DNA of 32,469 nucleotides from Minisyncoccota bacterium (GCA_028687495.1 JAQUAA010000002.1:1-32469); one strand, 5' to 3'; positions 3,174-19,086 are shown, counted from the first letter of the stretch. The notes: generated by a model from the sequence alone, not told the origin. Made by a program: numbers and translations.

Positions 3174-3887
3174 CTAATTTTTATTGTCTTTTGAATAGTG
3201 GTTGAAACGATAATTTAAGATATCCGACCTGACGGCTCTGCCCGAAAGCATATAAAAAAAACAGAGAATGTATTTTAAAAGGGTTTTGAAATAACCGTCC
3301 TTTTCGAATCTTCTGAGGATTATGTAAATCTTGGTTGATTTTATGATTCCGAATCTGCCGAATTTGGCCGCCTGTCTTACGAAATAGAGGTCTTCCGCCA
3401 ATTTAATATCTTCCTCAAAACCGCCGACTTTATCAAAGAATTTTTTTCTTATCAAAATGCCCATGGCGCCGTTCGGCAAAACATTCTGGGAAAGGTTTAT
3501 CATCCGGTTCCACAATAAATTGAACCCGGTTTTGACGACTTTCCTTTTTGTTTGGGGTATTAATGTATAAGAAGCTACATCGAGTTTTCTTTCCTCGAAC
3601 TCCTTTAATGATTTCTCCAAAAAATTTTCCGGCACTTTCAAATCGGCATCCAAAAAAAGCAGCAGGTCACCTCGGGCCTCTTTGGCTCCCTGATTTCTTC
3701 CTTTCGCCGGCAGTCCGCCAGCTACGATTTTACCGCCGAAATTTTTAGCGATTTGAGTTGTCCTGTCTTTGGAACCGGCATCAGCCACGATTATTTCGTA
3801 ATCGGTAAAATTCTGCTTTTCTATCGATTTTAGCAGTCGGGGAAGATATTTTTCTTCATTTAGAGTTGGAATTATGATGGAAAGCAT
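3174..3887 (-). CDS. Family-2 glycosyltransferase (GT-A fold)
   Basis: The N-terminus is IIIPTLNEEKYLPRLLKSIEKQNFTDYEIIVADAGSKDRT. It carries an LDAD (DxD-type) motif. Its start lies 1 nt after the upstream stop (TAA-T-ATG). Confidence 0.85.
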   Translation of the reverse strand: MLSIIIPTLNEEKYLPRLLKSIEKQNFTDYEIIVADAGSKDRTTQIAKNFGGKIVAGGLPAKGRNQGAKEARGDLLLFLDADLKVPENFLEKSLKEFEERKLDVASYTLIPQTKRKVVKTGFNLLWNRMINLSQNVLPNGAMGILIRKKFFDKVGGFEEDIKLAEDLYFVRQAAKFGRFGIIKSTKIYIILRRFEKDGYFKTLLKYILCFFYMLSGRAVRSDILNYRFNHYSKDNKN

Positions 3888-12765: not shown

Positions 12766-13272
12766 ATGATCCTAATTGTTGGACTGGGAAATCCCGGCGG
12801 AAAATACAGAGATACCCGTCATAATGTCGGCTCCGAGATAATCGACGAACTGAATCTTTTGAATTTGAGGAACGTCGTTCTGGCAAAGCCCAGAACCTTT
12901 ATGAATGAATCCGGCAAGGCAGTGAAAGAATTATTGAAGAAGCATCGATTGGAATCAGACGATCTTGTCGTCATCCACGACGATATCGACATTCCTTTGG
13001 GAAAAATCAGGATCGTTAAAAACCGCGGGGCAGCCGGCCACAAAGGAGTGGAATCGATAATCAAAGAAATAAACTCCCAAAATTTCATCAGATTAAGAAT
13101 CGGCATTAAACCGGAAAAAGGCAAACCAAAAAATCCTGAAAATTTCGTTCTTCAGAATTTCAATAAAAAAGAGGAGAAGATCTTAGAAGAGGTAATAAAA
13201 AAAACCGTCCAAGCAGTTGAAGTTTTCTTAAAGGAAGGTTTGGAAAGAGCGATGAATGAATTCAATAAATGA
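12766..13272 (+). CDS. pth: Peptidyl-tRNA hydrolase
   Basis: Motifs seen: LIVGLGNPGGKYRDTRHNVG, DDIDIPLGKIR, GHKGVESI. Confidence 0.93.
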   Translation: MILIVGLGNPGGKYRDTRHNVGSEIIDELNLLNLRNVVLAKPRTFMNESGKAVKELLKKHRLESDDLVVIHDDIDIPLGKIRIVKNRGAAGHKGVESIIKEINSQNFIRLRIGIKPEKGKPKNPENFVLQNFNKKEEKILEEVIKKTVQAVEVFLKEGLERAMNEFNK

Positions 13273-13273
13273 A

Positions 13274-13309
13274 GAAGCCGGGGAATGTTTGAACATTCTA
13301 CCCGGCTTC
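13274..13309. terminator. Long hairpin between convergent pth and the small ORF (probable terminator, mainly for the minus-strand unit)
   Basis: GAAGCCGGG (13274-13282) pairs perfectly with CCCGGCTTC (13301-13309). An inner helix GAATGT/ACATTC is also possible. On the minus strand it is followed by the U-rich UUCAUUUAUUG. No U-run follows on the plus strand. Confidence 0.5.
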
Positions 13310-13329: not shown

Positions 13330-13485
13330 TTACTCCTTTGATTCTTTGCCCTGCGCTTCGGCCCGGCGCTGCTCGGCCATCTCTTTATTGATTGACCTGC
13401 ATTTGCTGCAGTCTTTACTTACTGCCTCGCATAAACTTGCCGGACCGCCGCACCACTGAGCTAAAGGTGCTCCTTCTAACGGCAT
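13330..13485 (-). CDS. Unannotated 51-aa Cys-rich small protein (hypothetical)
   Basis: Hand translation gives MPLEGAPLAQWCGGPASLCEAVSKDCSKCRSINKEMAEQRRAEAQGKESKE followed by a stop. The ATG is at 13485-13483 and the TAA at 13332-13330. It is preceded by UAAGGAGGUGAUC (13488-13500), with 7 nt between GGAGG and AUG. It falls below the ORF-track length cutoff. Confidence 0.55.
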   Translation of the reverse strand: MPLEGAPLAQWCGGPASLCEAVSKDCSKCRSINKEMAEQRRAEAQGKESKE

Positions 13486-13688
13486 ATGATCACCTCCTTA
13501 AGTTTTATACTCCAGCCTACCTGCGAGCGCCGAAGATCTACGGCATAAAGCTTTGATCTGCGGCTGTCAGCTCTAAGTTTTAAAGGAGGGATAACTTAGA
13601 ATCCATCCTCGAGTAAATAACAAAGTTACCTACTCGATTAAGCTACTCGCAGATAGACTGGAAGATAAAACTTGACGACAAACTGAAT
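13486..13688 (-). promoter_or_regulatory. Structured ~200-nt 5' leader (riboswitch-like / cis-regulatory RNA candidate, class unknown)
   Basis: P1 is 16 bp (13646-13661 with 13512-13527). P2 is a 13-bp hairpin (13609-13637). P3 consists of interleaved helices (13601-13608/13585-13592 and 13593-13600/13572-13579). P4 pairs 13529-13538 with 13555-13564. All four wobble positions in P1 and P2 are G.U on the minus strand and A.C on the plus strand. Confidence 0.6.
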
Positions 13689-13701
13689 AATATATTATAC
13701 T
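13672..13701 (+). promoter_or_regulatory. Candidate mfd promoter TTGACG-18-TATACT, -10 ends 7 nt before the ATG
   Basis: TTGACG is at 13672-13677 and TATACT at 13696-13701. The ATG is at 13709 and there is no SD. Its -10 overlaps the -10 of the opposing promoter. Confidence 0.45.
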
Positions 13702-13721
13702 ACTTTAGATGGAATTGTCAA
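13694..13721 (-). promoter_or_regulatory. Near-consensus sigma70 promoter TTGACA-16-TATAAT driving the leader+sORF unit
   Basis: On the minus strand, TTGACA is at 13716-13721 (inside the first codons of mfd) and TATAAT at 13694-13699. The predicted TSS is around 13687. Confidence 0.6.
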
Positions 13722-18770: not shown

Positions 18771-18809
18771 AAAAAAGTGGAGCCCTGCGCTATAAAGCAT
18801 GCAGGGCTC
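18771..18809 (-). terminator. Rho-independent terminator at the 3' end of the orphan RNA locus (just upstream of tsaC)
   Basis: Minus-strand GAGCCCUGC (18801-18809) pairs perfectly with GCAGGGCUC (18780-18788), 9 bp with a 12-nt loop. CAC-UUUUUU follows (18771-18779). Confidence 0.65.
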
Positions 18810-19023
18810 ACGAGGCGATGTAGATAACAATCCACATTGAGAGTAAGCTTAAACAGCTCCTCCCCTTGATGTTTCGTATTCAGTTGTAGTAACTCAAGGA
18901 AACTTAAGGGGAAAACGGATGATTACCGTACCTCCTTCCTATGAATTTTGTCACCTGAATAGTTCAAGCAAATAACATCACCTCCTTTCAATGGAAAACG
19001 GGTAAAAAGAGCGGAAGCAGGAC
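18810..19023 (-). ncRNA. Candidate ~210-nt non-coding RNA (or attenuator leader of tsaC), class unknown
   Basis: The region is bracketed by two minus-strand terminators. Hairpin AUGUGGAU-UGUU-AUCUACAU (18818-18837) has a G.U that would be A.C on the plus strand. A long-range helix pairs UAUUCAG (18955-18961) with CUGAAUA (18877-18883) and CUUGA (18964-18968) with UCAAG (18865-18869). Three GGAGG motifs are present. No ORF with an acceptable start follows any of them. Confidence 0.35.
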
Positions 19024-19053
19024 GAAAAAATCCTACTGTGATTATAGTAGGAT
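19024..19053 (-). terminator. Rho-independent terminator of the nucleotidyltransferase gene
   Basis: Minus-strand AUCCUACU (19046-19053) pairs perfectly with AGUAGGAU (19030-19037), 8 bp with an 8-nt loop. It runs directly into UUUUUU: the last stem U at 19030 plus 19025-19029. Confidence 0.65.
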
Positions 19054-19086
19054 ATAAAAATAAAAATTTACTGTCAAGTGGATAAC

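Follow-up and report, generated by a model that had tools for sequence, protein, structure and literature searches.

Positions 13500-13673 on the minus strand of a 32,469-nt stretch of DNA from a Minisyncoccota bacterium (GCA_028687495.1, JAQUAA010000002.1:1-32469; the whole stretch is referred to here as the window), together with the promoter at 13694-13721, belong to a family of small structured RNAs that is found in Parcubacteria and has not been described before. At least 135 loci, each with one copy, contain the same RNA in at least 95 distinct sequences, and all of these loci derive from Patescibacteria/Parcubacteria metagenome-assembled genomes and metagenomes; homologues of the neighboring mfd gene place the organism of the window in the same group. 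Judged from its sequence, the RNA is an independent gene with its own near-perfect promoter and a fixed address, and it is conserved whether or not an open reading frame (ORF) follows it. We put at roughly 0.6 the probability that this undescribed family consists of stand-alone small RNAs (sRNAs) that function independently of any ORF behind them.

Searches of Rfam 15 at the gathering threshold returned no match on the element in the window, nor in 10 related loci, with coverage that included the TPP, SAM, FMN, purine, preQ1, glycine, lysine, cobalamin, T-box, yybP-ykoY, c-di-GMP, 6S, SRP (signal recognition particle) and raiA families. At E<=10 the element yielded noise only (MIR7533 with 12 bits where the threshold is 230, and DUF805b with 10.6 bits where it is 35.6). 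Similarly, literature searches with literal strings of its longest helix, P1, and with keywords (noncoding RNAs of these phyla, anti-Shine-Dalgarno-like sRNAs, Shine-Dalgarno usage) found no paper on this RNA. An earlier note on this stretch, made from the sequence alone, had recognized no known riboswitch class in the element, had called it the strongest candidate there for something undescribed and had suggested an Rfam search; these searches bear out that it belongs to no described family.

Structure and covariation of the RNA

The earlier note had proposed a minus-strand RNA of four helices behind a near-consensus promoter. That promoter matches the sigma-70 consensus at 12/12 positions (-35 TTGACA at 13721-13716, a 16-nt spacer and -10 TATAAT at 13699-13694, minus strand), with transcription predicted to start at about 13688-13686, and all of the helices listed are present. 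The 203-nt minus-strand RNA has a minimum free energy (MFE) of -83.2 kcal/mol versus -48.8 +/- 4.0 in dinucleotide shuffles (z = -8.6), none of 200 shuffles folding as well, and the plus strand folds more weakly (-67.2 kcal/mol, z = -6.5). P1 is longer than the 16 bp initially described: in the MFE fold, AAGUUUUAU-C-UUCCAGUCUAUCUGCGAGU (13645-13673; family consensus ccuUcCgGuCUauCUGCGAG) pairs with GCUCGCAGGUAGGCUGGAG-U-AUAAAACUU (13500-13528), that is, 13673-13645 with 13528-13500, forming about 28 bp with a single interruption. A short helix not listed before, P1a, joins AGCU at 13641-13644 with AGCU at 13569-13572 (13644-13641 with 13572-13569). The P2 hairpin, CGAGUAGGUAAC-UUU-GUUAUUUACUCG, spans 13610-13636 (13636-13625 paired with 13621-13610), and the P3 hairpin (13572-13600) consists of the stem UCUAAGUU (13600-13593)/AACUUAGA (13579-13572) and a 13-nt loop at 13592-13580. 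P4, GCCGCAGAUC ... GAUCUUCGGC (13529-13564; stem 13564-13555 with 13538-13529), stacks directly on the 3' strand of P1 with 0-1 nt between them.

Conservation of these helices was assessed by pair counts on a 93-sequence covariance-model alignment (A4). Standard pairs occupy 92.6% of cells, as compared to 82.2% after column shuffling and 35-48% when partners are slid, and cells in which both sides have changed number 480 versus 180 in the control. Double changes occur at all six P3 pairs (99.3% paired), at all ten P4 pairs (92.5% paired, the structure being conserved and the sequence variable) and at 8 of the 27 P1 pairs (91% paired). P1a covaries as well (G-C to A-U, C-G to U-A), its pair types across the family including GC 60 / AU 12 / GU 6, GC 87, and CG 62 / UA 7, and it has the longer variants AGUUAC/GUAACU and GACC/GGUC. 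P2 is optional: about two thirds of members have it, the forms of 130-148 nt lack it, and it covaries among 40 distinct P2 segments. Covariation in relatives, which the earlier note had named as a check, supports P1, P2, P4 and one of the P3 helices. Short forms folded alone adopt the same Y shape (z -8.5 to -10.4), and the consensus, as predicted from the alignment, is a Y-shaped fold of P1 (about 27-33 bp), short P1a, optional P2, P3 and P4, in which the long, sequence-conserved P1 bears two arms, one formed by P1a, the optional P2 and P3 with its invariant loop, and the other by P4. The junctions are short (0-6 nt) and variable, and the sole invariant unpaired motif is the apical loop of P3.

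For P3, two interleaved helices had been put forward as either a pseudoknot or mutually exclusive hairpins. Both can form in the window sequence, where the single-sequence MFE prefers GGAU/AUCC, but only UCUAAGUU/AACUUAGA is kept in the family: the pseudoknot or alternative helix GGAUGGAU/AUCCCUCC was rejected because the partner varies (GGUGAAGG, GGGUAAAAA, GGGACGAAAU) without compensation while the loop stays invariant. Pairing of the loop with the 3' strand of P1 (CCCUCC/GGAGGG, a perfect complement in most members) was rejected as an evolutionary constraint because those 3'-strand positions covary with the 5' strand of P1 and not with the loop; the clade of the window has GGAGUA in place of GGAGGG, and two members retrieved from synteny (L017 and L018) lack the motif.

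The G.U pairs, which had been called strand-specific, make up 7 of the 70 MFE pairs on the minus strand, and the wobbles are held at fixed P1 positions across the family. The covariance model scores the minus (forward) strand at 71-135 bits (100-135 bits in one set of comparisons) and the reverse strand at 32-63 bits. Because the reverse strand falls 50-80 bits below the forward strand, the minus strand is the functional one.

Search for relatives

The 51-aa ORF that follows the RNA in the window has just two close protein clusters, whose contigs (L001-L009) carry the same promoter, RNA and ORF. These contigs already display compensatory changes in the RNA, and one lineage lacks P2 altogether. 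Searches with nhmmer recovered the RNA without the ORF, adjoining mfd, in four more species. A covariance model was built from seven sequences (R1) and followed by two DNA-pattern scans, which identified at least 17 species-level genomes with the RNA and, in metagenomes, at least 120 contigs, all of them strong covariance-model matches; a looser genome pattern yielded mostly chance matches, which the model filtered out. Family counts given below (x/94 or x/95) refer to the loci found among the matches listed, and the true family is larger. Members fall into size classes of about 130-148 nt and about 170-184 nt, to which a 97-nt mini-version (L018) is added, in which P1 plus U6 itself constitutes the terminator; the family has three size forms, of about 90, about 140 and about 175 nt. 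Phage and plasmid collections contained no match to the RNA, and because of this result and the single copy per locus, an origin from a mobile element was rejected.

A loop resembling the 16S rRNA 3' tail

The only invariant unpaired motif in A4 is the P3 loop, (A)AUCCCUCCUU (13583-13592 in the window, minus strand), which reads UCACCUCC in distant members. It nearly copies the canonical 3' tail of 16S rRNA, AUCACCUCCUU, which contains the anti-Shine-Dalgarno (anti-SD) sequence; the comparison is with the E. coli-type 3' end, as the window holds no 16S gene. The loop is kept in members whose retrieval made no use of it: in four found by overall similarity (L010, L013, L016 and L019), in two found from synteny alone (L017, with UUUCACCUCCUUA, and L018, with CUCACCUCC), in one found only by a pattern for the 5' strand of P1 (L314, with AAUCCCUCCUAA), and in two reached via the protein (L302 and L306). 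It is unpaired in the consensus as well as in the MFE folds of the short forms. As the earlier note stated, CCUCCUU within the loop (13589-13583) is the exact complement of AAGGAGG (13499-13493) in the Shine-Dalgarno (SD) sequence downstream.

This SD, AAGGAGGUGAUC (13488-13499, minus strand), is very strong, being a 12-nt complement of the canonical 16S 3' end, and it stands out from its surroundings: only 1 of the 29 ORFs of at least 90 aa in the window has even a weak SD, and none has a stronger one. Across the family loci, a strong SD precedes 26 of 551 ORFs (5%) of at least 120 aa versus 50 of the 64 ORFs behind the RNA, the latter figure being somewhat inflated because the picking of ORFs behind the RNA demanded a loose purine motif. 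The host genomes are SD-poor, and the set of potential SD targets is consequently small. In the window and the family loci, many starts follow a TATAAT-like box by a few bases, as would be expected of leaderless mRNAs.

At 18775-19075 on its minus strand, the window holds another orphan transcription unit. Its TTGACA/TATAAT-like promoter drives an RNA of about 265 nt that is likewise structured (MFE -89.8 kcal/mol, z -5.1) and ends at a strong terminator (GAGCCCUGC...GCAGGGCUC plus U6); the unit contains no credible ORF and has no match in Rfam. It bears three SD-like motifs (AAGGAGGUGAU, GGAAGGAGGU and GGGGAGGAG). Among the loci examined it has one homologue (L182, 7982-8349), in which the first SD-like motif is kept and followed by a mini-ORF of 3-6 codons. 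This RNA could be a partner or a target of the RNA with the anti-SD-like loop.

Genomic location and passenger genes

Wherever flanks are available, transcription of the RNA leads away from mfd, and a convergent pth lies ahead: pth lies downstream in 91 of 95 representatives, and a divergent mfd lies upstream in 74 of 95, its start mostly 18-45 nt from the RNA. Representatives without a pth or mfd neighbor mostly have short flanks. The promoter has 12/12 consensus positions in 71/94 members and 11/12 in 14/94, with spacers of 16-17 nt.

What lies between the RNA and pth is not constant. An ORF begins 10-45 nt downstream of the RNA in 64 of 95 members, and these ORFs belong to more than 25 unrelated families with no coherent function: a GGDEF protein (Pfam E = 1e-31) in 17 members, a 59-aa protein termed 'MWEVK' in 9, the Cys-rich protein of the window in 8, a small membrane protein in 8-9, a zinc-ribbon-like protein in 3, and singletons in about 20. 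In about 29-30 members there is no ORF, and the stop codon of pth lies 1-44 nt past the RNA. A hairpin with a U-tract directly follows the RNA in 16 of 30 such ORF-less loci versus 4 of 64 ORF-bearing ones (counted between RNA and start codon), such that an own promoter and an own terminator, both predicted from the sequence, would delimit a discrete small transcript in ORF-less members. Conversely, four syntenic Parcubacteria (L014, L023, L025 and L063) have the promoter and an SD-led small ORF without the RNA. The ORF between the RNA and pth is therefore a variable passenger, co-transcribed from the promoter of the RNA and needing its own strong SD. A leader of a type I toxin-antitoxin system was rejected, because the small membrane protein is one recurrent cargo family only, the others being soluble, GGDEF proteins or absent.

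The slot between RNA and pth (as in L016, L019, L209, L200 and L079) is a site of fast turnover of small genes. The same few families (GGDEF, MWEVK, Cys-rich, and membrane/RRREKE) recur behind distantly related variants of the RNA, which suggests a cassette-like exchange between lineages. In eight loci (L019, L214, L224, L228, L232, L238, L209 and L248), a conserved hairpin, GGAGGGCAAAAA/UUUUUGCUCUU, with a U-rich tail is situated 0-25 nt after P1; it re-uses the 3' strand of P1 and could be an attenuator or the relic of a duplication. A run of N in one of the close relatives (L002, GCA_964644145.1, about 3220-3420) masks the end of the terminator of the small ORF and the pth region, due to which its gene calls differ from those of its sister contigs.

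The passenger of the window (13330-13485, minus strand) encodes a 51-aa protein with four cysteines (C-x6-C-x6-C-x2-C) that has close homologues. A profile search recovered about 20 further small relatives of 44-64 aa with four conserved cysteines and the pattern MPLxxAxLxxWCxGPAxxCxxVxxDCxKCxSxxK. There was no Pfam match, and a small-protein pattern search of GTDB representative genomes gave 120 pattern matches, none of which was confirmed. This is a real family of small proteins that is separate from the RNA and may bind metal. When five distant homologues were examined, two (L302 and L306) lay behind the RNA at the mfd-pth site, and three (L303, L309 and L310) were located elsewhere without the RNA. 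Because homologues occur both with and without the RNA, RNA and ORF are independent modules.

In the window, the RNA is physically the 5' part of the transcript of the Cys-rich ORF, with no terminator between them. A hairpin at 13274-13309 (minus strand; GAAGCCGGG...CCCGGCUUC followed by a U-rich tail, as read from the sequence) is likely the terminator of the combined transcript of RNA and ORF and abuts the stop codon of the convergent pth (12766-13272, plus strand); a simple terminator scan omitted this hairpin because its loop exceeds 8 nt. At the other end, a short 5' leader (13674-13687, minus strand) precedes P1 and includes GUCAA (13676-13672), a pentamer that most family members share and that is complementary to TTGAC. 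The -35 box of the RNA promoter falls within the first codons of the divergent mfd. On the plus strand there is a promoter-like site (-35 TTGACG at 13672-13677, -10 TATACT at 13696-13701, with the ATG of mfd at 13709), which would probably give a leaderless mfd transcript and whose -35 box is complementary to the GUCAA of the leader; a link of this pentamer to the mfd promoter is presumed. The two promoters stand back to back and overlap (13672-13721), the -10 of the RNA promoter (13699-13694) sharing positions with TATACT on the plus strand (13696-13701), and a transcript from the plus-strand site would start at the mfd ATG itself. The strong promoter of the RNA may compete with transcription of mfd.

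What the RNA may do

The RNA would act through the exposed anti-SD-like loop of P3. Our best guess is that this loop pairs in trans with the few strong SDs that the SD-poor lineage has, and possibly also with the RNA's own 3' extension, and dampens translation there, as sRNAs with C-rich or anti-SD loops do in other bacteria; the long P1 may serve as a stem for stability or processing. As a specific mechanism, masking of SDs by the loop is possible but doubtful. A broader version, in which the RNA would be devoted to mimicking the 16S 3' tail and would govern the minority pathway of SD-dependent translation in a lineage whose initiation otherwise does without SD sites, either by masking SDs or by titrating a factor that hides the anti-SD, strikes us as rather unlikely; if true, such a mimic would be a new type of global regulator of translation mode in bacteria of the candidate phyla radiation (CPR). 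The very strong SDs are found mostly on small accessory proteins, which tend to gather right behind the RNA.

Several observations weigh against a stand-alone RNA acting in this manner. Most members were fetched by patterns demanding CCTCCTT and the 3' strand of P1, which inflates the apparent conservation of both segments. A terminator is missing from about 14 of the 30 ORF-less members, and in about two thirds of all members an SD-led ORF lies 10-45 nt past P1 with no terminator between, so that a role in cis keeps some probability. Extended complements of the loop are not enriched within the window (3 matches versus 5.4 expected). The SDs behind the RNA generally read GGAGGUGA and fit the 16S tail better than they fit CCCUCC of the loop, and SD and loop have therefore not visibly co-evolved. 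Finally, the start site, 3' end and abundance of the RNA are predictions from its sequence, and the trans targets of the loop are candidates.

A cis-regulatory leader, riboswitch-like or acting as an attenuator, would instead control the adjacent ORF through pairing of the loop with its SD or through competition between P1 and a downstream hairpin, and this we regard as improbable. Some features of the family agree with it: In the window, no terminator separates RNA and ORF and the SD abuts P1; 64 of 95 members have an ORF at close distance, 50 of these 64 with a strong SD against 5% of genes in general; the Cys-rich and GGDEF families recur behind distant variants of the RNA; and the GGAGGGCAAAAA/UUUUUGCUCUU hairpin of a subset of GGDEF and MWEVK loci, which overlaps the 3' strand of P1, resembles an expression platform; most members have no such hairpin. 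However, the downstream genes share no function, and in some 30% of lineages the RNA is retained and has compensatory changes although no ORF follows it, often with a terminator directly after it. Both the ORF families and the slot itself also occur without the RNA. The junctions are short and variable, with no conserved core resembling a ligand pocket visible, and a P1 of 27-33 bp is far too stable for a ligand to switch. The P1-adjacent SD and the loop are situated at opposite ends of P1: because the SD abuts the base of this helix of about 28 bp and the loop lies on an arm at its far end, pairing in cis would need P1 to open and would be sterically awkward.

The ORF-less members, the unrelated cargo, the very stable P1 and the geometry of SD and loop together disfavor sequestration of the SD in cis as a general function. 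The SD-sequestering switch that the earlier note had envisaged for the Cys-rich ORF is not supported, in that the downstream gene varies or is absent, the partner of GGAUGGAU is not conserved and the SD abuts the base of P1. Its description of the element as a leader of the Cys-rich ORF is correct insofar as the two share a transcript in the window, but the RNA is not dedicated to this ORF, as about 30 of 95 members have none and the ORF family also occurs without the RNA.

As the main alternative, the P3 loop could be a decoy for a protein, mimicking the 16S tail and titrating a factor that binds it (a bS21-like protein, an Era/KH-type maturation factor or a nuclease of the rRNA tail), and would thereby set the amount of free anti-SD in the ribosome pool. 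The likeness to the 16S tail extends past CCUCC, to AUC-CCUCCUU in the main family and to UCACCUCC(UUA) in L017 and L018, and the conserved G.U wobbles and sequence-conserved P1 suggest a surface for recognition by a protein. The SD-poor genomes are, moreover, reminiscent of Bacteroidetes, in which ribosomal proteins are reported to sequester the anti-SD (PMC7797042). However, synteny links no candidate protein to the RNA, its neighbors being only mfd, pth and variable cargo, and the motif sits in a hairpin loop and not at a free 3' end. Such a decoy has little probability in our estimate.

That the element works on the plus strand or as DNA, with its inverted repeats terminating or insulating in the space between pth and mfd, or that the minus-strand transcript serves only as a cis-antisense RNA or as promoter interference against mfd, is very improbable. 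The element does sit exactly in the pth-mfd spacer, its plus strand also folds well, and its promoter overlaps back to back with a putative mfd promoter; however, on the plus strand the fixed G.U pairs would turn into A.C mismatches and the covariance model loses 50-80 bits, P3 and P4 covary and the P3 loop is invariant, neither of which a terminator needs, and the plus-strand hairpin, as read from the sequence, has no U-tract after it. A 6S-like RNA regulating RNA polymerase, which the size (140-180 nt), very strong promoter and long closing stem would fit, is scarcely credible given the lack of a match to any 6S family even at E<=10, an interior formed by a three-way junction that leaves 0-1 nt unpaired on its 3' side and has no two-sided bubble resembling an open promoter, and a 97-nt mini-form below the length that 6S RNAs need. 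Along with 6S, the RNAs SRP, 5S, RNase P, tmRNA and Y RNA, as well as self-cleaving ribozymes, retrons and integron attC sites, were rejected on the basis of fold, size, missing partner genes or the lack of a covariance-model match.

To our knowledge, CPR bacteria, with their tiny genomes, have almost no described regulatory RNAs. The present RNA gene is supported by covariation and has a consensus promoter and a fixed address. Its one invariant motif copies the anti-SD tail, while only about 5% of the genes of its hosts are preceded by a strong SD, and it thereby provides a handle on how the few SD-led messages are treated. The fast-evolving slot behind it is useful for studying the turnover of small genes, and for annotation, an alignment and a covariance model of the new family are in place.

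Relation to known RNAs

Like riboswitches and SD-sequestering leaders, the RNA is, in the window, a structured 5' region with an anti-SD-like sequence before an SD-led ORF; unlike them, its downstream genes are unrelated or absent, it has no junction core, and its P1 is too long and stable. The faint likeness to yybP-ykoY that the earlier note saw in GAGUAG disappears in the family, where relatives carry GAGUGG at this place and P2 varies, so that the motif lacks conservation, and there is no match to a riboswitch in Rfam. It resembles 6S RNA in its size, in being driven by a strong promoter and in having a long closing helix, but it has a three-way junction in place of a two-sided central bubble and includes the 97-nt form. 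Similar to raiA motif RNA, OLE and ROOL, it is defined by covariation, restricted to one lineage, syntenic beside housekeeping genes and an orphan with respect to function; its fold and sequence are unrelated to theirs, it is much smaller than OLE and ROOL, and it is confined to Parcubacteria and carries a recognizable anti-SD-mimic motif.

In SD-poor Bacteroidetes, the ribosomal proteins bS21, bS18 and bS6 are reported to sequester the anti-SD (PMC7797042). Such hosts resemble those of the RNA in having genomes mostly without SDs yet with a few very strong ones, and by this analogy, the few very strong SDs in SD-poor hosts suggest a system that handles the 16S 3' tail. The Bacteroidetes system is protein-based and acts on the ribosome, whereas in Parcubacteria the tail sequence is copied in an RNA of its own, and a link between the two is speculative.

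The closest parallels are trans-acting sRNAs that use unpaired anti-SD or C-rich motifs in hairpin loops, namely RoxS/RsaE of Firmicutes and NfeR1 (the alpha-r14 family) of rhizobia. In common with these, the Parcubacteria RNA is a stand-alone, promoter-driven small RNA whose hairpin loop exposes a conserved, SD-complementary C/U-rich motif, and a Rho-independent terminator is predicted at the end of many members. It has no sequence or covariance-model homology to them (no Rfam match), its target pairing is a candidate drawn from sequence alone, and it differs in its single motif on a Y-shaped fold closed by a stem of 27-33 bp, its fixed mfd/pth site, its frequent continuation into a passenger ORF and its SD-poor host. 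The RNA is thus a new family within a known kind, that of conserved bacterial sRNAs with an SD-complementary loop, in an unusual setting of SD-poor CPR genomes and a hyper-variable passenger slot.

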